Below, in pieces: positions 16,982-64,000 of a stretch of DNA of 64,000 nucleotides (positions are counted from its first letter, which is position 1; every line of letters starts with the position of its first letter). Location: IMG/VR virus record IMGVR_UViG_2541047680_000004, one strand, 5' to 3'. This DNA comes from a virus (Duplodnaviria > Heunggongvirae > Uroviricota > Caudoviricetes). The translations under genes were made by a program, and so were the position numbers. The notes beneath the pieces are model-generated. The model was not told the DNA's origin and did not search any database. It saw only the letters and a list, made by a program, of their open reading frames with translations.

Positions 16982-19900
16982 TTAGTTACGTTGAGTGTTT
17001 GGGTTGAGTGATCCGCCAGGGCGTTTCTCTTGAGCGATAGTCTCAAGCGCGATTGCTTTCATCCGTTGAGCGGCATTGTTCCATATGCTTTCTGTATCGC
17101 CGGATTCTGTCGTGCTACCGTCACTATGGACGTTGATCTCAATTGATACAGGAGAAAGAACATTTCCGCCTCCACTCATACCATCGGTACTGAGCGTTAC
17201 AGGGATTGTTCGGCCATCAGGCAATGGAACATACGCCTCATTCATAGAACCTTCCCCAAACAACGCTAATTGAGGCGAGTTAGCAATACCGCCTTTCTGG
17301 TATGCCCCGAGCGGGATCACGCCGTCTTTTCCGAATATTCCTCCATTTGCAAACTTCGGGATTGCAGGAATGCCTTTAGTTCCGTCAGCCACACTGCTGG
17401 TTGCGGTTTTAGCAGAGCTTGATGTCACGCTGTCGAAACCACCGCCAGCCCAAGCTGAAACAAGACCAGATGCAACCGTTGCTCCAAAACTCAACCACTT
17501 ATTACCAGAGCCGGAAGCATTAGCTCCAAGCATTGCAAACGCGGCAGACAGCGCGCCGGTAACAGAGCTGAGGTTCTGCATCGAGAAGATGGAGTCCTTC
17601 ACGGCTTTTGTCTCGGCATCTTTGGCTTCAGTGCTATCAAATAGCCCTGATACCCAGCTACCAATCGCATTTGTTGCAGTGCCAATTGCGCTGGTGGTCT
17701 GCTGTGTTGTTTGCCCCAATCCAGTTACCGAACTGGACGTCTCCTTCGTGGCTTCTCCTACCGACTTGTCGCCGTTAACAGTGTTGCCCATTCGTACCCC
17801 TTGATTGGCAACGGCGGAAGCAACCCCGGTCAGCAAATTACCACTCTGTGAACTACCAGCTGCGGTGGTTCCCATCCCCAACATGTTCATTAGAGGCAGC
17901 GTGATTTGCGACTTCACGACCATATTGGTGATATCTTTCAAAATGGACTGAGATAGGCTGGAGAAGCTCATCTTCCCGTTAATAACGAAATCAGTCAGGA
18001 CATCAGTTAAGCCACTAAACAAATCAGTCCAGGTGCTTTCGATCTGCTCTGCCAAGTTTTCGTATTCCAGTGCCAACTTCTGCGTCGCAGTCCCCGTCTC
18101 TTTAATAAGCGCGGTATTGCCAGCAGCAATCAGTTGATTGATTTTCTTTGTATAAAGCGCCACAACTTTAGGATCAGACGCCTTATCACGAAGTTCTATC
18201 AACGCTTTGAGATTGCGGTTGTAGGTGTCTTCGAAATCAGCAACTTTCTCTTCGCGAGACGGCGTATAGCCAGCACTAATAATGGAATCCGCCTCCGGTG
18301 CCCAAGTGGAGATCATCTGCTCAACATTGCGGCGATTAAACATCTCGCGATATTCAGGTGTCGCATTTTTGAGGTCTTCAAGACGTTTTTTCGCCTTGTC
18401 GATCATCTCTTGAGTGATGAACTCGTTAGGAACCGCATTAGCCAAATCTGTCAGCGATTTCGTTGTATCGCGAAGAGACTGATCAAACGATACCGTAGCC
18501 TTAGAGCTTTCACCCATTTGCCCCATAAGCTGATCGGCTTTGTCCAGAGCCTTCTGGTATCCGGCTGCCAGTTTCTGTTGCGCTGCCTGTTCCTTCTTGG
18601 CCGCACGCTGCGAGGCGTTAGCTGATCGTTGGGCTGCTTTCTCGGCAGCTGCTGCATCCTGTTCACGAGCTTTAGTTAGTGCAGCAATGGCTGCGGCACG
18701 CTCTTCATCGCTCATTTTCTCCAGAGAGCTGGCGCTGGATGCTTTCTGCAAATTAAGCTGCGTCTTGAGTTGTTTAGGCCCAATAATCGGCTTACCTTCG
18801 AAGTCCATCATCGGAGTGCCGTCAGGCAAAGTACGCTGATAAGTCGCAGAATCCATCTGGTTTCGCATATATTGCGCCAACGCCTTCTGAGCAGCTTTAT
18901 CAGTTGTACCTAACCCAAGAACAGTCCCCTGGTTTGACATTACGCCCTTACCAGTTTTGGCCGCGTTATCTCTCTCGAACTCTGCCTGAGTAAGTTCCTG
19001 AGCAACGGCTTCCAAATGCTCCTGATAACCACGAATACTGCCTTGCAGTTTCTGGATTTGCTCGGTATTGCCATCCTTTTTGGCTTTTTCAAGCTGATCA
19101 TTAAGAGTCGCGATTTGCTTCTCGGTCGCATTCTTACGAGAAGAAAGTGAATCAACCAGTTTTTGCGCAGGCTCCAGATAGCTTTTGTTTACCGTTTCAC
19201 GTAACGGTGCCAATAGCTTGTTCTTTTCGTCATCTGAAAGTGAACCGTCATCATTGATTTTCTGAATCTTATCCAGAGCCTCCTGCCGGGCTTTCACGAA
19301 TGTTGCCGCGAAAATCTGGTTTTCCTCTCGAATTTTCTCAATCTGAGATTCGGCAGCCTCTTTAGCCAAACGCTTTGCTACAGCGCCGTCACCAAGAGCT
19401 ATCGTGCCGGTTATCTTTTGATACTCTTCCTGATTTTTTTTCAGGCGTGCTTCGATGTCAGCCTTCGACTCTTTGTGAGTAATAACACCGGCAGAGTTAG
19501 ATACGTAATTAACGCCCTCACCATTTTTTAATGCTCGTTGATCAGCGAGAATCTGCTTTTCGAGCTTTTCTGCGCGATCGGCCATCTGTGCTCGTTTGGC
19601 CGCTGTCATCGCCTCTGGTATTTTCCTAATCTCGTCAACGACCTTTGAAGTTTCGCTGCGGAGCATGGTCATGTACGTGATTAGGCCAGCAACAGCTACA
19701 GTGGCAACTGTAAATGCTGCCCCTATAGGGTTTGCTGCAATGAACGCCGTTAATCCCGCAAAAGCGCCTTTAAGCCCCGTAATCGCCCCACGGATGGCGA
19801 AAATAAGAGAGGGGATCGGAGCCAGCCCCATACGTGCCGCACGATTGAATCGAGTTACTGCTGTAGCACCGAGATTAAATGGAGTCTGTATGGCGGTCGC

Positions 19901-21556
19901 CATCGTGGCAAAGGTGCTAACCATCTGGCTCCCAGCGCCAACTACCCCCATGATCCCTGCTCGCATCAGTTTGAACGCAACCATCGCGGCCACGACCTTA
20001 CCGAGATTAATTACCAGCTCTTGGTTCTTTGCTAACCATTGAGCAAGCTGACGCAACCCATCGATTGCCGTTGTTAACCCCGAACCTAAAGAATTGGCAA
20101 ACGAAATCCCTTCGGCGCTATTCATGATTGAAGCCAGTTCTTTCATCCCCTTCGATAGAGAATCCAGATATCCGGCCTGACCAACCCGATCAGCAAATAA
20201 CGTGAATGACGTCTGAAGTTGCGCCAGCGCACCTGTGTAGGTTTGCATCATGTCTTTCGCTGCGTTCTCATTCTCCGCACGCAGACCAACAAACATCAGA
20301 GACAACGCCTGTTTTGCCTCAACCGTACCGCTGGCAACGGCTTTAGTCAGTTCCCCCATAGTGATGCCTGCGGCGTCTGCCATTGCCTGCATCGCGTTAG
20401 GAACGGCTTCACCTAATTGCTGACGTAGCTCTTCCATTGACACAACGCCCTTACCGGACATCTGCTGAACGGCCACAGCCGCACGTTTCAACAGCTCACT
20501 ATCACCACCAAAACGAGCAACGGAGTCCACCAGCGCCTTCAGAGAACCATCGGTTGGATCTAAGCCAGCAGAACGAAACTTCACGAAGGAGTCTGTTAAC
20601 GCCTGCATCGCGAACGGCGCATTTTGAGCCATGTCTACGATGTACTTCATATCATCAGCGGCAGCCTGGCCCGGGTTGGACTTCTCCTTATTCAACCCTC
20701 GAAGCATCACCCGCATACGTTCCATTTCGGCCGCAGCTTCAACAATAGGCTTCTGCCACCCAAACATGATGTCAGTAACCGTTCTGGCTGCATCTCCGAT
20801 CTCGCCAAGCAGGAAAATGTTGCCACGAAGGCCAGAGAACATACCTCCTTCGTTACTTTTACCGCTATGGCCAGAAGCGCCGCTACGCCGCCCGCTACCA
20901 CCATCGCCACTTCCAGATGTACGAACGCGTACCGGCTTGCTAATCAGTTGCTGACGTCCGATAACTTCGTCCATCTGCTCACGAACCTTTTTCAGTCCCT
21001 CGGCAGCCTGACTCGTTGTGACACCCCAATTACTGAGTCGCTTCGTCGTGGTATTAAGGCGCGTATTCATGCCACTCACGGACGCAGAGGCTTCTTTGAC
21101 CTCCGTACCAAAGCGGCTTGCGCTTTTGCTTGCATAGGTCGCCCAATCAGAGAAATCATTTAGCTCTGATTGCACTTTACGTAATGACGCGGTGAGTTTA
21201 TCTACTGAAGAAGTTGTCGTATCGACGCGCTCAATCAGGGCTTTAAGACCAGAATTGAGGCTGGTGATGTTGCCACGCATTTTACGCGTAGCATCTGAAG
21301 CAAGCTCAAAACCGGCAGCTACATCCTGTAGTTTATCTGCAGTAGAATCGAGCTTGCTTTCCAGAACGCCAATGATACGGGCGACCGAACCCAAAGAGCG
21401 TTCAAAGGTTTGGATTTTTTGAGCAGGCTTTGTTACCTGCTCACCAAATCGAGTAAGCAGTTTCCCCGCACGATCGATTGACGCTGTAAACTGTTTGTCT
21501 TCCAGCGACAGGATAAACTCTACGTTTTGTGACATTCCCTTGTCATCCTCTGCCAA
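16982..21556 (-). CDS. tail tape measure protein
   Basis: 1524 aa; long coiled-coil and Gly/Ala-rich hydrophobic regions; position upstream of M-like gene. Confidence 0.85.
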   Translation of the reverse strand: MAEDDKGMSQNVEFILSLEDKQFTASIDRAGKLLTRFGEQVTKPAQKIQTFERSLGSVARIIGVLESKLDSTADKLQDVAAGFELASDATRKMRGNITSLNSGLKALIERVDTTTSSVDKLTASLRKVQSELNDFSDWATYASKSASRFGTEVKEASASVSGMNTRLNTTTKRLSNWGVTTSQAAEGLKKVREQMDEVIGRQQLISKPVRVRTSGSGDGGSGRRSGASGHSGKSNEGGMFSGLRGNIFLLGEIGDAARTVTDIMFGWQKPIVEAAAEMERMRVMLRGLNKEKSNPGQAAADDMKYIVDMAQNAPFAMQALTDSFVKFRSAGLDPTDGSLKALVDSVARFGGDSELLKRAAVAVQQMSGKGVVSMEELRQQLGEAVPNAMQAMADAAGITMGELTKAVASGTVEAKQALSLMFVGLRAENENAAKDMMQTYTGALAQLQTSFTLFADRVGQAGYLDSLSKGMKELASIMNSAEGISFANSLGSGLTTAIDGLRQLAQWLAKNQELVINLGKVVAAMVAFKLMRAGIMGVVGAGSQMVSTFATMATAIQTPFNLGATAVTRFNRAARMGLAPIPSLIFAIRGAITGLKGAFAGLTAFIAANPIGAAFTVATVAVAGLITYMTMLRSETSKVVDEIRKIPEAMTAAKRAQMADRAEKLEKQILADQRALKNGEGVNYVSNSAGVITHKESKADIEARLKKNQEEYQKITGTIALGDGAVAKRLAKEAAESQIEKIREENQIFAATFVKARQEALDKIQKINDDGSLSDDEKNKLLAPLRETVNKSYLEPAQKLVDSLSSRKNATEKQIATLNDQLEKAKKDGNTEQIQKLQGSIRGYQEHLEAVAQELTQAEFERDNAAKTGKGVMSNQGTVLGLGTTDKAAQKALAQYMRNQMDSATYQRTLPDGTPMMDFEGKPIIGPKQLKTQLNLQKASSASSLEKMSDEERAAAIAALTKAREQDAAAAEKAAQRSANASQRAAKKEQAAQQKLAAGYQKALDKADQLMGQMGESSKATVSFDQSLRDTTKSLTDLANAVPNEFITQEMIDKAKKRLEDLKNATPEYREMFNRRNVEQMISTWAPEADSIISAGYTPSREEKVADFEDTYNRNLKALIELRDKASDPKVVALYTKKINQLIAAGNTALIKETGTATQKLALEYENLAEQIESTWTDLFSGLTDVLTDFVINGKMSFSSLSQSILKDITNMVVKSQITLPLMNMLGMGTTAAGSSQSGNLLTGVASAVANQGVRMGNTVNGDKSVGEATKETSSSVTGLGQTTQQTTSAIGTATNAIGSWVSGLFDSTEAKDAETKAVKDSIFSMQNLSSVTGALSAAFAMLGANASGSGNKWLSFGATVASGLVSAWAGGGFDSVTSSSAKTATSSVADGTKGIPAIPKFANGGIFGKDGVIPLGAYQKGGIANSPQLALFGEGSMNEAYVPLPDGRTIPVTLSTDGMSGGGNVLSPVSIEINVHSDGSTTESGDTESIWNNAAQRMKAIALETIAQEKRPGGSLNPNTQRN

Positions 21557-42487: not shown

Positions 42488-42799
42488 TCAGGCTATTGCC
42501 ATCACTGATGCTCTCTGAATTTCTTGCTGGGCCACGCGGTTAACTTCCATCAAGGCCAGTTCGAGCTGATGTTCCGGCCACATTCTTTGAAACGCCATCC
42601 AGCCTTTTCCACGCTGGCGACGAACATTCATTACATAACGAGTAAAGGTGTTTTTATCGAAAGACACCGCTGTTTCACGGAACAGACGAATAGAGGTTCC
42701 ATTGGCAACGATGTCCAGCAAAGTTAATTGAGCAACCAGCGCAGGCTTCTCTTTTCTCTTCTGGTCTTTGTCCAGACCAAGAACCAATGATTTTTTCAT
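42488..42799 (-). CDS. hypothetical protein
   Basis: start set at MKKSLVLGL; basic. Confidence 0.45.
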   Translation of the reverse strand: MKKSLVLGLDKDQKRKEKPALVAQLTLLDIVANGTSIRLFRETAVSFDKNTFTRYVMNVRRQRGKGWMAFQRMWPEHQLELALMEVNRVAQQEIQRASVMAIA

Positions 42800-46210: not shown

Positions 46211-48244
46211 TTACTTAACCTGGTGGCCAGGTTTAGCACCAGCATCCGGGCTTAACAGGAAGATATCTTTCCCGCCGGGGCCAGCAGCCATCACCATGCC
46301 TTCAGAGATACCGAAGCGCATTTTACGCGGAGCCAGGTTAGCCACCATAATTGTGTGACGACCAATCAGTGCCTGTGGGTCTGGATAAGCAGAACGGATG
46401 CCTGAGAAGACATTACGCTTTTCACCACCGAGATCCAGCGTCAGGCGCAGCAGCTTGTCAGAACCTTCAACAAACTCTGCGTTTTCAATCAGCGCCACGC
46501 GCAGGTCAACTTTAGCGAAGTCGTCAAAGGTGATGGTTTCCTGAATCGGGTCGTCTGCCAGTGGGCCAGTTACCGGTGCGGCTGTGGCTTTCACTTCTTC
46601 TTTGGATGCTTCCACCAGTGCTTCCACCTGTTTCATATCGATACGGTTATACAATGCCTTGAACGGATTCACTTTATGGCCCAGCAGCGGTTGCTGGATA
46701 CCATCCCAGGTCAGTTCTGTATTCAGGAATGCTTCTGCACGTTCAGTCAGTTTCGGCAGTACCGGTTTCAAGTAAGTCATCAGCACGCGGAACAGGTTAA
46801 TGCCCATAGAGCAAATCGCCTGCAGATCGGCATCGCGTCCTTCCTGCTTCGCCACCACCCACGGAGCCTGTTCATCAACATAGCGGTTAGCCAGGTCAGC
46901 CAGTGCCATGATTTCACGGATAGCTTTACCAAATTCGCGGCTTTCCCATGCTTCGCCAATCACTTCAGCGGCATCAGTAAAGGTTTTGTACAGTTGCGGG
47001 TCAGCCAGTTCGCTTGCCAGCACGCCGTCAAAACGCTTGTTGATAAAGCCTGCATTACGGGAGGCCAGGTTAACCACTTTGTTCACGATATCGGCATTCA
47101 CGCGCTGAACGAAATCCTCCAGGTTGAGATCGATATCATCAATGCGCGAAGAGAGTTTCGCAGTGTAGTAGTAACGCAGGCTGTCGGCGTCAAAATGATT
47201 CAGCCAGGTGCTGGCTTTAATAAAGGTACCGCGAGACTTAGACATCTTCGCGCCGTTCACCGTCACATAGCCATGAACAAACAGGTTGGTCGGCTTGCGG
47301 AAGTTGCTGCCTTCCAGCATTGCTGGCCAGAACAGACTGTGGAAGTAAACAATATCTTTACCGATGAAGTGGTACAGCTCGGCGGTGGAGTCTTTCTTCC
47401 AGTATTCATCGAAGCTTACGCTGTCGCCGCGCTTGTCGCACAGATTCTTGAAAGAACCCATATAGCCAATCGGCGCATCTAGCCAGACGTAGAAATATTT
47501 ACCCGGCGCGTTCGGAATTTCAAAACCGAAATACGGCGCGTCGCGGGAGATATCCCACTGTTGCAGGCCAGATTCAAACCACTCCTGCATTTTATTTGCC
47601 ACCTGCTCCTGCAACGCACCGCTGCGGGTCCATGCCTGCAACATTTCGCTGAAAGAGGGCAGATCAAAGAAGAAGTGTTCAGAATCACGCATTACCGGCG
47701 TAGCGCCAGAAACCACCGATTTCGGCTCGATCAATTCAGTCGGGCTGTAGGTCGCGCCGCAGACTTCGCAGTTATCGCCGTATTGATCCGGGGATTTACA
47801 TTTCGGGCAGGTGCCTTTCACAAAACGATCCGGCAGGAACATGCCTTTTTCCGGGTCGTACAACTGAGAGATAGTGCGATTTTTAATAAAACCGTTCTCT
47901 TTCAGGCGAGTATAGATAAGCTCAGACAACTGACGGTTCTCTTCGCTGTGCGTCGAGTGATAGTTGTCATAGCTGATGTTAAAGCCTGCGAAATCAGTCT
48001 GGTGTTCCTGACTCATTTCGCCAATCATCTGCTCCGGTGTGATACCAAGTTGCTGTGCTTTCAGCATGATCGGCGTACCGTGGGCATCGTCGGCACAGAT
48101 GAAATTAACCTCGTGGCCGCGCATTCGCTGGTAACGAACCCAGACATCAGCCTGGATGTGCTCCAGCATATGGCCGAGGTGGATTGAGCCGTTAGCGTAC
48201 GGCAGCGCGCACGTCACCAGAATTTTCTTCGCGACTTGGGTCAT
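46211..48244 (-). CDS. metG: methionine--tRNA ligase
   Basis: 677 aa from [25 protein letters not shown] (HIGH-type) with KMSKS; C-terminal tRNA-binding domain; near-identical to enterobacterial MetG as I recall it. Confidence 0.97.
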
Positions 48245-48401
48245 AGTAGGCATTACTTCTTTGTAGTGAAAAGGGGCTTGATAGTAACAAAATGGCCTTA
48301 TGTCTGCCATGTGATAACAGCATTTCTCATAAATGATTAAATGTCGCAGCTGGAGTACACTACAAGGCGACAATTGCGCAAATTAAAATAAAGGAGACGG
48401 G

Positions 48402-49502
48402 ATGAGCGAGTCCAAATCGCCGGATGCCCTGAGAGCAATGGTAGCCGGTACGCTGGCTAATTTTCAGCACCCAACCCTGAAACACAACCTGACTACGCTT
48501 AAAGCGTTACACCATGTTGCGTTGATGGATGACACACTGCATGTCGAACTAATCATGCCTTTCGTGTGGAATAAGCCTTTTGAAGACCTGAAAGAGCAAT
48601 GTAGTGGTGATCTGCTCCGTATCACTGGCGCAAAGGCTATTGACTGGAAGCTGTCGTACAACATTGCCACGCTTAAGCGCGTCAAAAACCAACCAGGCAT
48701 TAATGGTGTTAAGAATATTATCGCCGTAAGCTCAGGCAAGGGCGGTGTAGGCAAATCGTCCACAGCAGTAAACTTGGCACTGGCTTTGGCTGCTGAAGGT
48801 GCGAAAGTTGGTATTTTGGATGCCGATATCTATGGTCCATCAATTCCAACCATGCTGGGCGCGGAAAACCAACGTCCAACCTCACCGGACGGTACTCACA
48901 TGGCACCTATCATGTCTCATGGCCTGGCAACCAACTCTATTGGTTATCTGGTCACCGACGACAATGCAATGGTGTGGCGTGGACCGATGGCCAGCAAGGC
49001 GCTGATGCAGATGTTGCAGGAAACACTGTGGCCTGATCTGGACTATCTCGTTCTCGATATGCCGCCGGGCACTGGTGATATTCAATTGACGCTGGCGCAG
49101 AACATTCCTGTAACTGGTGCGGTTGTGGTAACTACGCCGCAAGACATCGCGCTGATCGATGCGAAGAAAGGCATTGTGATGTTCGAAAAAGTCGAAGTGC
49201 CGGTACTAGGTATCGTCGAAAACATGAGTGTGCATATTTGCAGTAACTGCGGTCATCACGAGCCAATTTTTGGCACCGGTGGCGCACAGAAACTGGCCGA
49301 GAAATACAACACGCAGTTGTTAGGCCAAATGCCACTTCATATCTCTCTTCGTGAAGATCTGGATAACGGAACACCAACCGTTATTAGTCGTCCAGATAGC
49401 GAATTTACGGCTATTTATCGTGACCTCGCAGATCGCGTTGCTGCCCAAATGTATTGGCAAGGTGAAGTAATACCTGGCGAAATCGCATTCCGCGCAGTGT
49501 GA
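48402..49502 (+). CDS. apbC: Fe-S cluster carrier ATPase Mrp/ApbC
   Basis: P-loop SSGKGGVGKS, CxxC motif (CSNCGH); divergent from metG as in E. coli. Confidence 0.95.
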   Translation: MSESKSPDALRAMVAGTLANFQHPTLKHNLTTLKALHHVALMDDTLHVELIMPFVWNKPFEDLKEQCSGDLLRITGAKAIDWKLSYNIATLKRVKNQPGINGVKNIIAVSSGKGGVGKSSTAVNLALALAAEGAKVGILDADIYGPSIPTMLGAENQRPTSPDGTHMAPIMSHGLATNSIGYLVTDDNAMVWRGPMASKALMQMLQETLWPDLDYLVLDMPPGTGDIQLTLAQNIPVTGAVVVTTPQDIALIDAKKGIVMFEKVEVPVLGIVENMSVHICSNCGHHEPIFGTGGAQKLAEKYNTQLLGQMPLHISLREDLDNGTPTVISRPDSEFTAIYRDLADRVAAQMYWQGEVIPGEIAFRAV

Positions 49503-49503
49503 T

Positions 49504-49530
49504 AAAAAGGTGGTGCAATGCACCACCTAA
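49504..49530 (-). terminator. terminator hairpin between convergent mrp and UmuD'-like gene
   Basis: inverted repeat GGTGGTG / CACCACC with U-run on minus-strand RNA. Confidence 0.5.
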
Positions 49531-49539
49531 ACAGTTCTC

Positions 49540-49929
49540 CTACATCACAGGACAATCATCAAACTCGCCACTTCTTGCGTCGTTGATAATGTGAGTGATC
49601 ACACCAAACACGGCATTGCTGCCCGTGCATCCATCATCATCCTTTGGCAATGCTTCCTTCTTACCAGTTCTTAAATCCTCCAGATGCTGACGTGGATACT
49701 TCCGGTATCTTTTTACGCGATATTCCCCATCCAGAGCACATACAAGAAGAGATCCATCAACAGGAGTCAGTGAGGAATCGACCACCAGCAATGCACCCTG
49801 CAATATTCCCTCACGATGATGACTATCAGCCGCCCTCATGAAGTAGGTCGCTGAAGGATGTCTAATTATCTGCTGATCAAGAGAAATACGGCTCTCAGCA
49901 TAATCCGCCGCAGGAGAAGGGAAGCCCAT
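49540..49929 (-). CDS. UmuD'-like S24 peptidase-fold protein (HumD-like)
   Basis: begins MGFPSPAADY, aligning with UmuD from the RecA cleavage site onward; Ser (ADSH) and Lys (RVKR) positions conserved; in-frame TAA 15 nt upstream of ATG; RBS AAGAGG. Confidence 0.85.
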   Translation of the reverse strand: MGFPSPAADYAESRISLDQQIIRHPSATYFMRAADSHHREGILQGALLVVDSSLTPVDGSLLVCALDGEYRVKRYRKYPRQHLEDLRTGKKEALPKDDDGCTGSNAVFGVITHIINDARSGEFDDCPVM

Positions 49930-49945
49930 AATACTCGCCTCTTAA

Positions 49946-49965
49946 TGCTGTATATGCATACAGTA
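49946..49965. promoter_or_regulatory. LexA (SOS) box
   Basis: TGCTGTATATGCATACAGTA = CTGT-N8-ACAG, 16 nt upstream of the UmuD'-like start. Confidence 0.8.
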
Positions 49966-50260
49966 TATGTTGAAGCTATATATTTTTGAACTCTATCTCT
50001 TAAAAAAGATGTTAATAAGATGCTAACTATTGAAAGGCATAAATATATACAATTCCAACAAACGTTATTTTTAACAAATTTTTACTTCCCATTGACTTTC
50101 CCAGACTCCTTGTCTGAACTAATGTCCGCGGAAACCACTTTTTCCTTTACGAGTTATCCACAAAGTTATGCACTTGCACATAGTCTCTATAAATCCTATC
50201 TTAATTCGCAAGACACTGATGTTGCGGTATTGTGGGTACATTTGGTTAAAAACGGACATT

Positions 50261-50293
50261 AAAAAAGCCCAGTTGACTAGGCTGGGCTTTTTA
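50261..50293. terminator. bidirectional rho-independent terminator
   Basis: AAAAAAGCCCAG..CTGGGCTTTTT. Confidence 0.65.
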
Positions 50294-50299
50294 AAAGGA

Positions 50300-50716
50300 A
50301 ACAGAGTTTGCGCCTCTGTTCCTGAGCCATAAGTATCTGGCGACTGAGCTAAGATTAACCGAATGTACTGGATTCATCAAGAAACGTTGAGCCGTCATGC
50401 TAGGTAATAATGACCATTTACCAAACATCGTTGTTCTCAAAGAAGATTTAAGTCCAGGTTTTTGGTGACTCTAAAACCTTACCTTAACTCGAAATCGTGC
50501 CGTAAGTATCTGGCGACTACAGATATTGCAACTGCAAAGGCAAGCTCAAAGGTATTTGCAGCTAGGTGCGATAAAACTAAGTGAGGCCTATAGTGCTTAA
50601 CTTACTTTTCAAAATCGTGCCGCCTATGTTCGCAATCATCGAAGCGATCATTGAGTACGTCAACCAGCGCCCATAATGCTAGTTGTTACCGGCCCCATCC
50701 AAATGGGGCCATTTTA
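50300..50716 (+). ncRNA. candidate structured noncoding region / small RNA locus
   Basis: ORF-free; direct repeats TAAGTATCTGGCGACT (50330, 50503) and AAATCGTGCCG (50492, 50612); hairpins; plus-strand terminator GGCCCCAT..ATGGGGCC then ATTTTATTG at 50690-50716. Confidence 0.25.
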
Positions 50717-50725
50717 TTGTATTGA

Positions 50726-51358
50726 CTACATACTTTCTGATCTAATTGAGTTGTTCACTGCTCTGGCAATTTTCTCCCGCAATTGCTGCGTTCCGTGGTA
50801 CTGAACCGCAATATCCCGCAACTCATTCACCAGTTCTCTAATCTGGTGATCTTTAAGCTCATTATTTGGGTGATGGGCAACAACTCTGGTTAATTCACCC
50901 TTGTCTTTTGCTCTTACGTATGCAGCTCTTGTGCATTCGACCCATGTATTACCGCCTACATTAACTTCGTAGATTAGGCTGGACTTATCTGTCAATTCGG
51001 AACAAATACGGGCCGTGGTCTGGCAACTAGAGCATTCGCAGTTATCGCGGAAACCGTGATCTACCGGTCGAGAAAGAGGTTTAACTTTTTCATCCAACTT
51101 CATCACAGCATCGTGATAAGCGTTCCAGCCGTCATCTTTACCAAGTTGATAAATCTCTGAAGGCTCCATGTAGTCTATATCGCAACCTTCTTCATCTGAT
51201 CTATCTGGTCGTTTCCCTGGTAATCGTTCATAAAAACGATTTCTGTCTCGACGTTCGGCTCTCAGTGCTAACGCAAGAAGTTGCTCAAGCGAGGTATTTG
51301 CACCAGCAATAATTTCATTGAGAATATCTTCTGTGAGATCTTTCGCTACCGTGCTCAT
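50726..51358 (-). CDS. hypothetical protein
   Basis: 210-aa ORF with Cys cluster CECSSCQ. Confidence 0.4.
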   Translation of the reverse strand: MSTVAKDLTEDILNEIIAGANTSLEQLLALALRAERRDRNRFYERLPGKRPDRSDEEGCDIDYMEPSEIYQLGKDDGWNAYHDAVMKLDEKVKPLSRPVDHGFRDNCECSSCQTTARICSELTDKSSLIYEVNVGGNTWVECTRAAYVRAKDKGELTRVVAHHPNNELKDHQIRELVNELRDIAVQYHGTQQLREKIARAVNNSIRSESM

Positions 51359-51942
51359 TTATCTCTCTCAGTATGTTGCGATGGCGTAAATTTGACGACA
51401 TCAAATATTTTGGATGGCATCAACTTTATCCGCGAGCTTAGTTCGGCTCTTCTCTGTAATGCGGTTAATAATGTTTTCGTTCTGACGCCTTCGTGTATCC
51501 TCATCCCTGGCACAAGGACTACATCGCAGGGGAGATGCTCAGGTGACAAATCATTTTGGGCATCACCAATAAGTTGTGTAATCTCTCTTTCAAGCCGACC
51601 GCCTAACTCCGTTTTAGTGCAATGTTCTGACCAATCGCCAGCCTCAAGAAGCGCGAGAATGTTTAAAATATCGTCCACAAGAGCAGTAGTGTCGCCGATG
51701 ACAGGAAAGGGATCGGCATAAAGCGCGACAATATCCCCAATCGTTTTTTGTTCCGCATCCTCAATATCTAAATATGCCGGAGTCGAAACAATTGCCGGAT
51801 CGGCCAAATCATCTTTCATTACAAACGCAGATGGCTTTTGTTCAGACAAGGCCAGTAACACATTCGCCATACGATGTGCGATGTGCTTTTTTCCGTAATC
51901 CTTTGTTGCCTGTGTTAGTTCTTCTTTTGTCATTTCAATCAT
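51355..51942 (-). CDS. hypothetical protein
   Basis: 195-aa ORF, ATGA overlap with neighbour. Confidence 0.4.
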   Translation of the reverse strand: MIEMTKEELTQATKDYGKKHIAHRMANVLLALSEQKPSAFVMKDDLADPAIVSTPAYLDIEDAEQKTIGDIVALYADPFPVIGDTTALVDDILNILALLEAGDWSEHCTKTELGGRLEREITQLIGDAQNDLSPEHLPCDVVLVPGMRIHEGVRTKTLLTALQRRAELSSRIKLMPSKIFDVVKFTPSQHTERDK

Positions 51943-52475
51943 CGTAAGGCATCCTCCACACTTAGCAGTCCGTTCCGCAAAAGATAATCCATCGCCCTAT
52001 CCGGTAATTTGCAATCAGGTTTTGCTTTTTTCAGTTGGCTGACCAATTGTTTAACCAGCATTGTTAATTCGATAACCTGGTAGCGCGGCAATGGTGAATT
52101 ATCGGCTTTACCCTGGATGACTGAACGTCCTTTCTCCTCCTTCGACGGTTCTGGCTGCGCCATGTAAAGCGGGGCAACATGTGCGACAGAACCGAGTGAC
52201 TCATGTATCCGAACCCATGTATCTTTCTCTGCACAGTCACGGTAAATAATAGAGACTGATTCCTGATCGTTTTTTGTGAGTGTTACCAGCCACGCCACTG
52301 GCTCTGCCTCCAGTGAGGTCAGTGCAATTCGAGCCAGTTTTAGATCTCGTTCAACCATCTCATGAACAACTTTGCAGTCCGCTCCTTCTTTACTAACACG
52401 TCCTTTCAAGTCTTCCAGATAACTAACGCTTTCGCGTGCATGGGAGATTAACTGTTCTTTGGTAAAGGTGGTCAT
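51939..52475 (-). CDS. hypothetical protein
   Basis: 178-aa ORF in coupled gene string. Confidence 0.4.
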   Translation of the reverse strand: MTTFTKEQLISHARESVSYLEDLKGRVSKEGADCKVVHEMVERDLKLARIALTSLEAEPVAWLVTLTKNDQESVSIIYRDCAEKDTWVRIHESLGSVAHVAPLYMAQPEPSKEEKGRSVIQGKADNSPLPRYQVIELTMLVKQLVSQLKKAKPDCKLPDRAMDYLLRNGLLSVEDALR

Positions 52476-52663
52476 TAGGTAGCTCTCTCAACAACAAGCA
52501 ATTCGTCGTAGTCATAATCAGTTTCGGAACCATCCGTACCGAACAGAGTCACTTTTTCACCGTTCATCCAGAAAGATTTAACCGCACATCGTTTGCCTTT
52601 AGATGTTATGACCACATCACCTGGGGTTACATCTTCAGCGCGAACTTCTACTGTTCTCATCAT
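52475..52663 (-). CDS. hypothetical small protein
   Basis: short ORF from MMRTVEV; start uncertain. Confidence 0.3.
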   Translation of the reverse strand: MMRTVEVRAEDVTPGDVVITSKGKRCAVKSFWMNGEKVTLFGTDGSETDYDYDELLVVERAT

Positions 52664-53201
52664 GCTGACCCTCTTTGGTGAAAACGCCTGATGCAATACT
52701 GTTTATGATGCTGTCAGTACAGGGAGTAGAAAGCTGGGCATCTCCAGCTATTTTCATGACTTCGACATCCGCATATCGAATACCGAGGTGTATCAGACCT
52801 GCTATACCTGACTTAAGTCGAACATTTTCCATAAACAGATCCTTTTCCCGCTGTTTAACGGTCTCCAGCTCAACACGCAGTTTCTCAAGCGTTAGGGCCA
52901 TCTCTACGTTCTCCTGCTCAAGACGTCGGATGTGTTGCTGTCTTTTATCCAGTTCGTCCAGCAGTGCAATCACATCGGGATCACTATCATCAACTACTGT
53001 TACGCGTGATTTTTCATAATGTTCGTCTGCAAAAGTACGCCCTATCTTAAAATATCCGTCATCACCCTCACCGGAACAGGCATAAACAACATGTGCTCCA
53101 GATATGCGCTGTATTGACATTTCCTCGCCACAAACAGAGCATTTAGGCGCTGGTTTTGGTGAATAACGTTCACGTAACGTCAGGTAGTAAATCTCATTCA
53201 C
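52635..53201 (-). CDS. zinc-ribbon plus coiled-coil protein
   Basis: CSVCGEE..YACSGEG Cys pairs; central coiled-coil-like segment. Confidence 0.4.
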   Translation of the reverse strand: MNEIYYLTLRERYSPKPAPKCSVCGEEMSIQRISGAHVVYACSGEGDDGYFKIGRTFADEHYEKSRVTVVDDSDPDVIALLDELDKRQQHIRRLEQENVEMALTLEKLRVELETVKQREKDLFMENVRLKSGIAGLIHLGIRYADVEVMKIAGDAQLSTPCTDSIINSIASGVFTKEGQHDENSRSSR

Positions 53202-53653
53202 TGTTTAGCTCCTGTACGAAGCTCAGCGGCAAAAGCTACTGCGTGATCATGATGTTCAAGTGTGTATGCGCACTCAGCAAACATCTCCACGCCCTGCGCA
53301 CGTACTTCAGCCAGAAAAGCATCGGTTGCTGGAGTCTCCGTTAATTCGCTAACCCAATTATCTCCGTGTTCCTCGGCACACATCGCATCGAATGCTCGCT
53401 CAGATTCTTTCAGGGCTGCATTCTCCGCCGCTAATGCGTCTCTCTGCGCCCGCAACTTCTCAATTTCGGCAGCCATGTAGTAACCAACCATAGCGAAAGT
53501 GGCGAAAGGGTAGTCCGAATCATCAGGAGATACGGAGGCCATTAGCAGACCATCGTGCATGTTCTGGCTTCCATCAGTGATGGATACCGCATAAGAATCG
53601 CTGGTTTCCCGTTTATACAATACGACGACCGGGTTCTTGATTTTCTCTCTCAT
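53198..53653 (-). CDS. hypothetical protein
   Basis: 151-aa ORF. Confidence 0.4.
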   Translation of the reverse strand: MREKIKNPVVVLYKRETSDSYAVSITDGSQNMHDGLLMASVSPDDSDYPFATFAMVGYYMAAEIEKLRAQRDALAAENAALKESERAFDAMCAEEHGDNWVSELTETPATDAFLAEVRAQGVEMFAECAYTLEHHDHAVAFAAELRTGAKQ

Positions 53654-54207
53654 TACGATGCCTCTAACTTGTCTAACTCTTTCAGCCCTTCACGTACCGC
53701 GTTCACAATGCGTTCCAGATACTGGTATTTCGGGTTTGGTATCGTTGGCCAGTCGGCATACCACGGATCATCACCAAATAGATTCAGCAGTTTGTTACCG
53801 ATGCCGAGACAACAGCAGCTTTCTTTGACATCATCTGCGTTTTCCGCCTCGACCCACATTTCGCGAGCCTGTACAGCATCGATTTCTCTCTCTCTTCGTA
53901 ACTTTATGATTTCTGACTTCACGAAAAGCAGATTTGCATCGTTGTCATCGTCGACCGTGCTTAGCAGTTGAGGGTCGAAATTGTCGATTAGATAGTCGTT
54001 GCTAACTCGCTTGATGAACGTCTGCACATCATCACCGCCCATAGCAAACCAAGCCGCAGTCCACGCTTTTCCGTAGCAGGTGATGGTGATTCTTCCCTTA
54101 CCAGGTTCGTAGTTTTCAATCATCACTCGAACCGGATCGAGGCGTTCCAGATCCGTCAGCACAAAGGAAAGAACATCTATTTTTTCGACCTTCATGCAGC
54201 CTCCCAC
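53653..54207 (-). CDS. hypothetical protein
   Basis: 184-aa ORF. Confidence 0.4.
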   Translation of the reverse strand: MGGCMKVEKIDVLSFVLTDLERLDPVRVMIENYEPGKGRITITCYGKAWTAAWFAMGGDDVQTFIKRVSNDYLIDNFDPQLLSTVDDDNDANLLFVKSEIIKLRREREIDAVQAREMWVEAENADDVKESCCCLGIGNKLLNLFGDDPWYADWPTIPNPKYQYLERIVNAVREGLKELDKLEAS

Positions 54208-54833
54208 GCGCTCCAGATCAGCGATTTGTGTTTTTCATAACGTTTGATGTGTACCGGTTTCAGAAGCGCAATACCTTCTGTCACTTTCGCCATTGCGCTT
54301 AATAGCAACGGGTGTTCTATACCTACCCTCTCCATGTACTCGACAACATCAGCATTGGCACCAATCTCTTTGCCGTTAAAGAGTACGTCCAGCATCAGTT
54401 CTTTCTCTGCAAGGTAGATAGCTGAAAACTCAGGATCGCGACTCACGATAGAAGAGGTATTGTCCAGCAGGTCAGCCAGCTTGATCATGCGCGTCTGCAT
54501 GTTGAGATTTTGCTCCAGCTCCCGGACATTGATGATGAAACGCTGTATTCGATTGCCGTCTTCTGGCCTTGCAATGTTGGTCAGAGCCAGAACCATTTCA
54601 GCTACGCGCTCACCGAAGTGATCACGAACCATCTCTATGGTTACATTTGTGTCTTCGACCACATCATGCAGAAGCGCCGCGATCTGCATCTCCACGGTTC
54701 CGTCATGCAATGCAACGATCTCTCGGACAGCAACCGGATGATTTATATAATCTTCACCTGTATATTTTCTTTTCTGACCAACGCCACCATGAGCGCCAGC
54801 GGCGAACATATGTGCTTCGGAAATACTAGACAT
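54192..54833 (-). CDS. SpoT/RelA-like HD-domain hydrolase (small alarmone hydrolase candidate)
   Basis: YINHPVAV and AALLHDVVEDT match the (p)ppGpp-hydrolase HD signature; 213 aa, no synthetase domain. Confidence 0.75.
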   Translation of the reverse strand: MSSISEAHMFAAGAHGGVGQKRKYTGEDYINHPVAVREIVALHDGTVEMQIAALLHDVVEDTNVTIEMVRDHFGERVAEMVLALTNIARPEDGNRIQRFIINVRELEQNLNMQTRMIKLADLLDNTSSIVSRDPEFSAIYLAEKELMLDVLFNGKEIGANADVVEYMERVGIEHPLLLSAMAKVTEGIALLKPVHIKRYEKHKSLIWSAWEAA

Positions 54834-54842
54834 TCTTAACTC

Positions 54843-54905
54843 CGTTGTTTTCTAGTTGTGGTTATTTTCACAAATAAGAAAAGGCAGAAAACAATTTATT
54901 TAAGG
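54843..54905. promoter_or_regulatory. composite family-1 operator pair upstream of HD-hydrolase gene
   Basis: TTGTTTTCT half-site plus AAGGCAGAAAACAATTTATTT. Confidence 0.5.
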
Positions 54906-54952
54906 CCATAAGTTATGGCCTTTATTTATTCATGCAGAAGGATTTGTAGCGC

Positions 54953-55333
54953 CTAATTGCCGGATAAAATGGGTTGAGGTGCTTGCCAGTAAGCTCCACC
55001 GTCCCATGTGAACCCCATGCGAATAAGAGTGTTTATTGCGGCTTTGGTAGACTCCGATTCGACACTGGCTTTTCGAAACTCTTGAACCTCTTTCGCCAAC
55101 TTGTATGTAATTGTGCAGGGGACGATTGCAGCCCAGCCTTTCTCATGACTGTTAATGACCATCTGGATGTGACCATCCAGAATAGGTTGATCAGGCATGT
55201 TATTGAAAACGTCTGCCTGTTTTTGAATATGAAGAAAAAGCCTTGCCAGCTCCATTTGCTCACTACGAGACAAGGGATTATCAAGAGGGTTTTTTGCAAA
55301 AGCGGCTATACGCTGTGCGTCAATGCCAAACAT
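54953..55333 (-). CDS. hypothetical protein
   Basis: 126-aa ORF. Confidence 0.35.
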   Translation of the reverse strand: MFGIDAQRIAAFAKNPLDNPLSRSEQMELARLFLHIQKQADVFNNMPDQPILDGHIQMVINSHEKGWAAIVPCTITYKLAKEVQEFRKASVESESTKAAINTLIRMGFTWDGGAYWQAPQPILSGN

Positions 55334-56037
55334 CAGCGCACCTCACCATCTTTATGGCTGGAGTTAACTTCCGCCATTAAATGTCTGACGTAATCGACAA
55401 GAGAGCCACCTGGTGGAATCTGGCATTCCTCAACTAACTGGAAGTAGATATCCGCAGCATTACGTGTATTGCTACCCGCGCATATTCTTTCTTCCCGAAG
55501 TGCATGAAGCTCGTTGATCAAACGGTCACACTCTCCGTTACGCTGATCCACAACAGCCTCAAGCTCTGCGACGCGTTCACCTGGCGTCTTACCTTCTTTG
55601 CGTTGGATGGTAACGACGAAATCGCCAATTGCAGGGACGTTGTAATCCAGCTCAAGGTAGTTTTTGGCACCGCTGCGGACGAACTCACCCGCGAACATGG
55701 TGGCGAACATCGCAGAGGCCACTTCGCCGTTGAAAAGTGACTCCAGATCTAACGGAGTCCCGGCAGCAAGAGCCTCTTTTGCTGTATCCATTGCATCCAT
55801 GAACCGATCAAACTCATTAGCGCGCTTTTCCAGGTCTTTCCATTGCTCGCTCCAACGTTTGGCAACGAAGTCTATGAATGTTTTCGCGGATTCATCAAAA
55901 TCCCCCTCAAACTTAACGATGCCTTTATCAATAATGATCTGGCCTACCGCATCCTCTGCATAACCTTTCAATGTAAACTTGAAAGAAAAATCAGAACGGC
56001 CTGTGACGTTAAAATGCTCTAACTGGAGGTTGCTCAT
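55333..56037 (-). CDS. hypothetical protein
   Basis: 234-aa ORF. Confidence 0.4.
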   Translation of the reverse strand: MSNLQLEHFNVTGRSDFSFKFTLKGYAEDAVGQIIIDKGIVKFEGDFDESAKTFIDFVAKRWSEQWKDLEKRANEFDRFMDAMDTAKEALAAGTPLDLESLFNGEVASAMFATMFAGEFVRSGAKNYLELDYNVPAIGDFVVTIQRKEGKTPGERVAELEAVVDQRNGECDRLINELHALREERICAGSNTRNAADIYFQLVEECQIPPGGSLVDYVRHLMAEVNSSHKDGEVR

Positions 56038-63784: not shown

Positions 63785-64000
63785 CTGATGAATCCCCTAA
63801 TGATTTTGGTAAAAATCATTAAGTTAAGGTAGATACACATCTTGTCATATGATCAAATGGTTTCGCGAAAAATCAATAATCAGACAACAAGATGTGCGAA
63901 CTCGATATTTTACACGACTCTCTTTACCAATTCTGCCCCGAATTACACTTAAAACGACTCAACAGCTTAACGTTGGCTTGCCACGCCTTACTTGACTGTA
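63785..64000 (+). mobile_element. IS10 (IS4 family) end, partial, continues beyond window
   Basis: sequence from CTGATGAATCCCCTAATGATTTTGGTAAAAATCATTAAG matches the IS10 terminal sequence as I recall it. Confidence 0.85.
63892..64000 (+). CDS. IS10 transposase, N-terminal fragment (partial at window edge)
   Basis: translation MCELDILHDSLYQFCPELHLKRLNSLTLACHALLD. Confidence 0.85.
   Translation, partial: MCELDILHDSLYQFCPELHLKRLNSLTLACHALLDC

Follow-up and report, generated by a model that had tools for sequence, protein, structure and literature searches.

In the title of their paper, McLenigan et al. (1999) present the product of the humD gene of bacteriophage P1 as a functional UmuD′ homologue which facilitates SOS mutagenesis. 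In P1 a LexA site is annotated 19 nt before humD, and the LexA box of the Escherichia coli umuDC operon likewise lies 19 nt before the ATG. As to the timing of the host system, a passage in PMC6375631 places the formation of the UmuD′2C complex about 45 min after SOS induction.

The DNA analysed here, in the following called the window, comprises 64,000 nt of the virus record IMGVR_UViG_2541047680_000004. It contains an orthologue of humD, which is a real and functional gene, already known and catalogued: the identical locus is named "HumD family translesion DNA polymerase" in RefSeq, where the family name stands on more than 100 E. coli plasmids. For annotation this means that a known gene is confirmed which is already named in public databases and present in phage Cyrano. 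By analogy to P1 we consider it probable (roughly 0.8) that the gene is a functional orthologue of P1 humD residing on an SSU5-type phage-plasmid, and that its product serves as an SOS-induced UmuD′ mimic for the UmuC of the host.

Reading frame, operator and protein family of humD

The elements of the locus are the following:

49540–49929, minus strand: humD coding sequence, 129 codons and a TAG stop (open reading frame list, profile matches and alignments)
49938–49943, minus strand: AAGAGG, a Shine-Dalgarno-like putative ribosome-binding site 8 nt before the ATG (from the sequence)
49942–49944, minus strand: in-frame TAA, 5 codons before the ATG (from the sequence)
49946–49965, letters read on the minus strand: predicted LexA operator (SOS box) TACTGTATGCATATACAGCA (weight matrix and conserved position)
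49962–49990, minus strand: putative sigma-70 promoter TTCAAA-17-TATACT (consensus match only)
49508–49528, minus strand: hairpin with a T run behind it, resembling an intrinsic terminator, immediately after the stop codon of humD (terminator scan)

The reading frame starts with MGFPSPAADYAESRISLDQQ at the ATG at position 49929, and the N-terminus of the protein reads MGFPSPAADY. In a multiple alignment M1-G2 falls on C24-G25 of UmuD, where G25 is the first residue of UmuD′. The best match by sequence among solved structures is UmuD′ itself (1umu, E = 6.7e-23), with residue 2 of the query on residue 1 of the crystallised protein; the same residue aligns with residue 25 of full-length UmuD in 8gmt. 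The N-terminal arm and the Cys/Ala-Gly cleavage site are absent. A longer frame with a non-ATG start, which could restore a cleavable N-terminal arm, was looked for and is excluded by the TAA 5 codons upstream together with the four codons in between (GAG GCG AGT ATT), none of which is ATG, GTG or TTG. The shortened form is common to the family: a Met-Gly start is found in 117 of 121 close representatives, and an in-frame stop is located 3–5 codons upstream in all but one of the 51 loci that encode a HumD at least 90 % identical.

The predicted operator is a perfect CTGT-N8-ACAG palindrome which agrees with the 20-mer LexA consensus at 17 of 20 positions, and exactly 16 nt lie between its 49946 end and the ATG. 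It was scored with a weight matrix made from 19 published LexA operators of E. coli, of which the umuDC box was confirmed in the K-12 sequence. With 23.8 bits it ranks above 17 of the 19 training sites; the second-best 20-mer in the 64-kb window reaches 11.2 bits, and the top score over 20 shuffles of the window was 18.7. A second CTGT-N8-ACAG match at 42670 was discarded, being GC-rich and outside the top ten weight-matrix sites of the window. The −10 hexamer of the only promoter-like site found in the consensus scan overlaps the box. At the other end of the gene, the hairpin directly after the stop would make humD monocistronic and set it apart from the convergent apbC. Rfam and tRNA scans gave no match near the humD locus.

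The position of the operator is conserved in close relatives: each of the 51 loci with a HumD at least 90 % identical possesses a CTGT-N8-ACAG box 16–19 nt before the ATG. Among 32 loci on viral contigs of no assigned phage type, with a protein about 70 % identical, some possess paired near-consensus boxes, and about half have no box within 150 nt. The missing box in about half of these homologues from other phages counts against an SOS-induced UmuD′ mimic.

No umuC was found by tblastn. The UmuC of E. coli has no homologue in the 64-kb window (best E = 0.37), and downstream of humD stand the terminator and the convergent apbC. UmuC is also missing from the 5 kb on each flank of humD in 82 related viral loci, which were fetched with the family alignment and, together with the window, make up the loci compared above, and from those remaining parts of the closest complete plasmid, NZ_JBWDPU010000001.1, that were retrieved. 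An element which lacks umuC would have to rely on the host copy.

The protein belongs to a defined family. Against the NCBIfam equivalog for HumD, NF051876 ("HumD family translesion DNA polymerase"), it scores 219.8 bits at a cut-off of 120, residues 1–129 covering profile positions 1–129, and against Pfam PF00717 (Peptidase_S24) 37.9 bits at a cut-off of 23.3. The UmuD subfamily model NF007621 scores 87 bits, under its cut-off of 110, and the LexA model 27 bits, under its cut-off of 111. In PHROGs the match is phrog_811, "UmuD-like protein". A first AlphaFold run on the family alignment, in which all members are at least 67 % identical, gave a mean pLDDT of 47.4 and was unusable; with a diverse alignment a mean pLDDT of 74.9 was obtained. 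The resulting model is best matched by the UmuD and UmuD′ structures 8gmt, 1ay9 and 1umu (target-normalised TM-scores 0.75–0.77), followed by the C-terminal domains of LexA and of the lambda repressor.

As far as such features can be read from the sequence, the initial annotation described the gene correctly as a solo, LexA-controlled umuD′-like gene for the pre-processed form. The start at the mature UmuD′ N-terminus, the stop just upstream, the strong predicted box 16 nt before the ATG, the terminator and the absence of a following umuC all agree with it. Its comparison with P1 HumD is borne out by the equivalog match, by 91.5 % identity to the P1 protein and by the LexA site at the same position in P1.

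Since humD lacks the first 24 codons of umuD as well as a umuC partner, it might be regarded as the remnant of a decaying umuDC operon, that is a 5′-truncated umuD pseudogene, and some sources label members of the family "LexA family transcriptional regulator", as if they were repressors. Both readings are hardly credible and were rejected on the grounds of selection, conservation and domain content. Compared with the P1-type copies, humD shows a dN of 0.03–0.05 at a dS of 0.7–1.1 (dN/dS about 0.04), and within the SSU5-type lineage a dN of 0 at a dS of 0.14–0.15. A ratio of about 0.04, maintained over a dS of up to about 1, means that the gene is clearly functional and under strong purifying selection, which argues against decay. 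The same holds for the Met-Gly start in 117 of the 121 representatives, for the possession of an own ribosome-binding site, promoter-like site, operator and terminator, and for the hundreds of cluster representatives of the same length (561 in a large protein collection, mostly 126–130 aa). A repressor is contradicted by the low score of the LexA model and by the lack of a DNA-binding domain, the 129 residues being taken up by the S24 domain.

UmuD–UmuD′ heterodimers down-regulate Pol V. HumD could accordingly act as a brake which titrates the UmuC of the host or heterodimerises with uncleaved UmuD and in this way limits mutagenesis or recombination during replication of the element; the fold and the dimer-forming core that it has in common with UmuD and UmuD′ are compatible with this role. 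However, purifying selection and LexA control fit a brake and an activator alike, and the result published for P1, according to the title of McLenigan et al. (1999), is facilitated SOS mutagenesis. We regard a brake as improbable and retain an activating UmuD′ mimic as the preferred reading.

Carrier element and mosaic surroundings

In tblastn searches of phage records the humD protein has an exact counterpart (100 % identity) in Escherichia phage Cyrano, and it is 98.5–99.2 % identical to the copies of CMS-2020a and PhiR41_1. The identity is 90.7–93 % to HumD of P1, P7, D6, RCS47, SJ46 and JL22, and 60–71 % to gp26 of N15, gp23 of phiKO2 and the UmuD-like proteins of lambdoid and P22-like phages. 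Among complete E. coli genomes 103 records contain the whole 801-bp query. All 15 records listed are replicons of 108–116 kb, and the one of these that was opened is a plasmid; PGAP names the product "HumD family translesion DNA polymerase" or "S24 family peptidase". Proteins at least 90 % identical are encoded by at least 641 members of a plasmid collection.

In its structural region the window shares 98 % identity with CMS-2020a, 99 % with Cyrano and 82 % with Salmonella phage SSU5, and the whole is colinear with about 34.2–99.8 kb of NZ_JBWDPU010000001.1. Judged by these matches, the carrier belongs to the SSU5-type phage-plasmids of E. coli, and a P1-type element is excluded. The initial annotation had taken the likeness to P1 HumD as support for an affinity to phage-plasmids. 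This is right insofar as the carrier is a phage-plasmid, but it is not a P1-like one, and homologues of phd, doc and lxr are absent from the 64-kb window. Moreover, N15-like, lambdoid and P22-like phages as well as chromosomal contigs have homologues of the gene, so that humD is not diagnostic of phage-plasmids.

The remainder of NZ_JBWDPU010000001.1 encodes RecA, a DnaE split by IS100, a DnaB-like helicase, a primase and a ligase, and in addition NrdAB, thymidylate synthase, DfrA51, a RuvC-family protein and four tRNAs; a Y-family polymerase was not found there. Pol V requires RecA for its activation, which makes an own RecA beside a UmuD′ mimic worth noting. The plasmid possesses one other strong LexA box, CACTGTATAAGTAAACAGTA (20793–20812, 21.9 bits), 27 nt upstream of a tyrosine recombinase gene (19663–20766, minus strand) that adjoins a helix-turn-helix gene. 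This box may indicate that a further function of the element is under SOS control. A full-length match to RNA-OUT (Rfam RF00240, 98.8 bits) is located close to the end of the window, at 63830–63899 on the minus strand, and probably marks an insertion sequence of the IS10 type.

On its two sides humD is bordered by the following regions:

48402–49502: apbC, convergent with humD, the next gene downstream and itself followed by metG
49966–50725: AT-rich non-coding spacer upstream of humD

The genes metG (methionyl-tRNA synthetase) and apbC/mrp form a divergent pair at 46211–49502 of the window, and an Acinetobacter phage record is annotated in the same manner, with metG beside mrp. The 3′ end of apbC is 80–90 % identical to the chromosomal apbC of E. 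coli. The metG-apbC block adjoins humD in every close SSU5-type relative; in phage records the complete metG-apbC-humD block is confined to Cyrano, two CMS-2020a records and PhiR41_1.

Within the spacer, blastn against P1 detects a 72 %-identical relic (about 50054–50177) of the segment that lies upstream of hot in P1 and there carries annotations for dnaA boxes and the late promoter LPhot; hot and lxr themselves are missing here. The 9-mers TTATCCACA and TTATGCACT are found in the spacer at 50154–50162 and 50166–50174 on the plus strand. Over the window as a whole the DnaA box (TTATNCACA) is matched 2 times where 2.4 matches are expected, so that there is no enrichment. The only sizeable open reading frame of the spacer, at 50020–50262 on the plus strand, was considered as a divergent LexA-regulated gene comparable to lxr of P1 and was rejected: in relatives with 84 % identity a stop or an indel breaks it, and it is therefore not coding. 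The small genes upstream of the spacer (50726–56037, minus strand) are annotated in relatives as Ead/Ea22-, Eaa- and Eae-like, which are lambdoid accessory genes, and this region is mosaic between close relatives.

At humD the DNA similarity to P1 extends from the LexA box to the stop codon. The confinement of similarity to box and reading frame, together with a dS of about 1, argues that the humD of SSU5-type elements is not the result of a recent transfer from P1. Among the relatives, those whose protein is identical carry one of two upstream sequences, one P1-like and one like that of the window, and the box is kept under both. Box and reading frame consequently behave as a unit in mosaic surroundings. 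A LexA-box-humD cassette that moves as a unit between the unrelated backbones of P1-type and SSU5-type elements under strong purifying selection suggests that the supply of ready-made UmuD′ during the SOS response is of real benefit.

Catalytic dyad and acidic C-terminal tip

Ser36 and Lys73 of the humD protein correspond to the nucleophile Ser60 and to Lys97 of UmuD. Loss of this dyad was looked for by alignment, and both residues are retained in the copy of the window. In the 121 close representatives position 36 is Ser, Thr or Ala in 76, 43 and 2 cases, respectively, and Lys73 is kept in 118. A broader survey covered the full-length representatives among the best 150 matches from an exhaustive search of 50 %-identity clusters. 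The dyad is kept in 2 of the 32 pre-truncated representatives vs 43 of the 50 which possess the N-terminal arm (Fisher p = 1.7e-13). Single examples are the solo homologues of Aeromonas phage pAEv1818 and Hafnia phage yong1, both without either dyad residue, and the full-length UmuD of Cronobacter phage ENT39118, encoded adjacent to umuC and with both residues kept. From these alignments it appears that the Ser-Lys dyad is mostly lost in pre-truncated UmuD′-like proteins and vestigial in the HumD clade. The initial annotation had treated loss of the dyad as decisive against a UmuD′-like protein. This argument is not valid, because the dyad is needed for self-cleavage alone; of the distant pre-truncated homologues most lack both of its residues. 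The survey also contained 17 longer representatives (e.g. 246–301 aa) composed of an arm, an [A/C]-G cleavage site, a UmuD-like domain and 68–147 further residues; most of them were reported as two matched stretches, and many lack the Ser or the Lys.

Several features are specific for HumD. His37 and Arg39, which are conserved and absent from UmuD, flank the former nucleophile, so that the cleft reads [S/T]-H-x-R. Residues 120–129 (SGEFDDCPVM) reach beyond the end of UmuD and include the tip E122-F-D-D-C-P-V-M129. The C-terminal pattern R-x-x-E-F-D-D-C-P-V-[M/I] is 90–98 % conserved at its positions in the 121 representatives. A metal site formed by the HumD-specific C64, H82, H37 and C126 was considered and dismissed, since C126 is replaced by Leu or Asn in distant homologues which keep the tail. 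On the basis of the conserved His37, Arg39 and C-terminal tip the family may do more than mimic UmuD′.

One form which such an additional role might take is that HumD-type proteins represent a distinct clade whose acidic tip, E-F-D-D-x-P-V-M, recruits or competes for another partner, be it one of the proteins that bind the SSB tip, a polymerase or a replication or recombination protein of the element, and in this way modulates DNA transactions of the host or of the phage-plasmid during the SOS response. The near invariance of the tip in the 121 representatives and its absence from UmuD speak for this idea. The tip also survives as E-[F/W]-D-D-x-P-x-x in the solo homologues of Aeromonas and Hafnia phages, which are 44–50 % identical and lack the dyad. 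Tail-like C-termini, some of which end in DDTPF or NLPF, are present in 9 of 32 pre-truncated vs 1 of 50 arm-bearing representatives. The end of E. coli SSB, DFDDDIPF, is similar to the HumD tip, but the likeness is one of short motifs, and the final residues are ordered differently (P-V-M in HumD, I-P-F in SSB). In the AlphaFold model residues 120–129 are predicted without secondary structure and residues 125–129 have a pLDDT below 50, which could point to a disordered tip, although a low pLDDT is weak evidence of disorder. Candidate partners exist on the element, which has its own RecA and replisome parts: because the phage-plasmid encodes RecA, DnaE, a DnaB-like helicase and a primase, the partner of HumD could be element-encoded instead of being the host UmuC. 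On the other hand, the title of McLenigan et al. (1999) reports P1 HumD as a replacement for UmuD′, and for this function no extra partner is needed. On balance an additional partner seems unlikely, though less so than a brake.

Stated more generally, and with the same reserve, the HumD-type proteins could form a separate, widespread, phage-borne clade of the S24 fold which dispensed with the dyad and gained an acidic tip of the form E-[F/W]-D-D-x-P-hydrophobic-hydrophobic, by which the HumD-UmuC complex or HumD alone would dock onto SSB-tip binders or a polymerase. If this doubtful proposal were true, temperate phages and phage-plasmids would possess in the tip a separate means of influencing the damage tolerance of their hosts. 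Dyad decay and acidic tip are leads on the question whether HumD exceeds UmuD′ mimicry, and the tip is to be taken as a lead and not as a finding.

Proposed action and comparison with known systems

For the preferred reading as a UmuD′ mimic, the following course of events can be proposed. In the undamaged lysogen the LexA of the host would occupy 49946–49965, which overlaps the −10 and start region of the promoter-like site, and keep humD off. After DNA damage RecA would become active and LexA would cleave itself, and a monocistronic humD mRNA ending at the hairpin at 49528–49508 should be made. Once the initiator Met in front of the Gly has been cut off, the protein would begin exactly as UmuD′ does, with the aligned GFPSPAADY. 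By analogy to P1 HumD, a dimer of the protein would then combine with the UmuC of the host to a Pol V-like translesion polymerase and skip the delay caused by RecA-mediated cleavage of UmuD. A pre-cut subunit of this kind plausibly shortens the lag of about 45 min. The supply of pre-cut UmuD′ could bring forward error-prone synthesis in the hosts of such elements, some of which carry resistance genes.

LexA-regulated S24 subunits on mobile elements, as in the window, are known from the umuDC-like operons of plasmids and ICEs (mucAB, rumAB, impAB, samAB) and from the umuDC of phage ENT39118. In contrast to the gene described here, these systems encode a full-length subunit that can be cleaved, in which GDSM and Lys are intact and the acidic tip is lacking, and the gene for the cognate Y-family polymerase follows immediately downstream.

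UmuD and UmuD′ of E. coli (1umu, 1ay9, 1i4v, 8gmt) have the S24 fold, 44 % sequence identity, the GFPSPAADY of the cleaved form and the positions of Ser and Lys in common with the HumD of the window. However, HumD lacks the 24-residue arm and the Cys-Gly site, and with them a RecA-dependent activation step. The GDSM of UmuD corresponds to ADSHH, ten additional conserved residues are present at the C-terminus, and there is no operon with umuC.

The gp26 of N15, the gp23 of phiKO2 and the UmuD-like proteins of HK140, HK639 and BTP1 resemble the protein of the window in being solo and pre-truncated, with 126–129 aa and the same tip. The genes for these homologues from N15, phiKO2, lambdoid and P22-like phages are located at moron or attP-proximal positions of other phage types.

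The HumD proteins of P1, P7, D6, RCS47 and SJ46, with 91.5–93 % identity, agree with that of the window in their length of 129 aa, in the Met-Gly at the UmuD′ position, in the tip, in a box 16–19 nt before the ATG and in the lack of umuC on the element. The annotated LexA site of P1 is homologous to the box of the window. The neighbours of humD in P1 are the divergent lxr, with hot beyond it, and phd-doc downstream, whereas in the window the gene is followed by a terminator and the convergent apbC-metG. The carriers differ as well: P1 is a myovirus-type phage-plasmid, and humD of the window resides on a siphovirus phage-plasmid of the SSU5 type.
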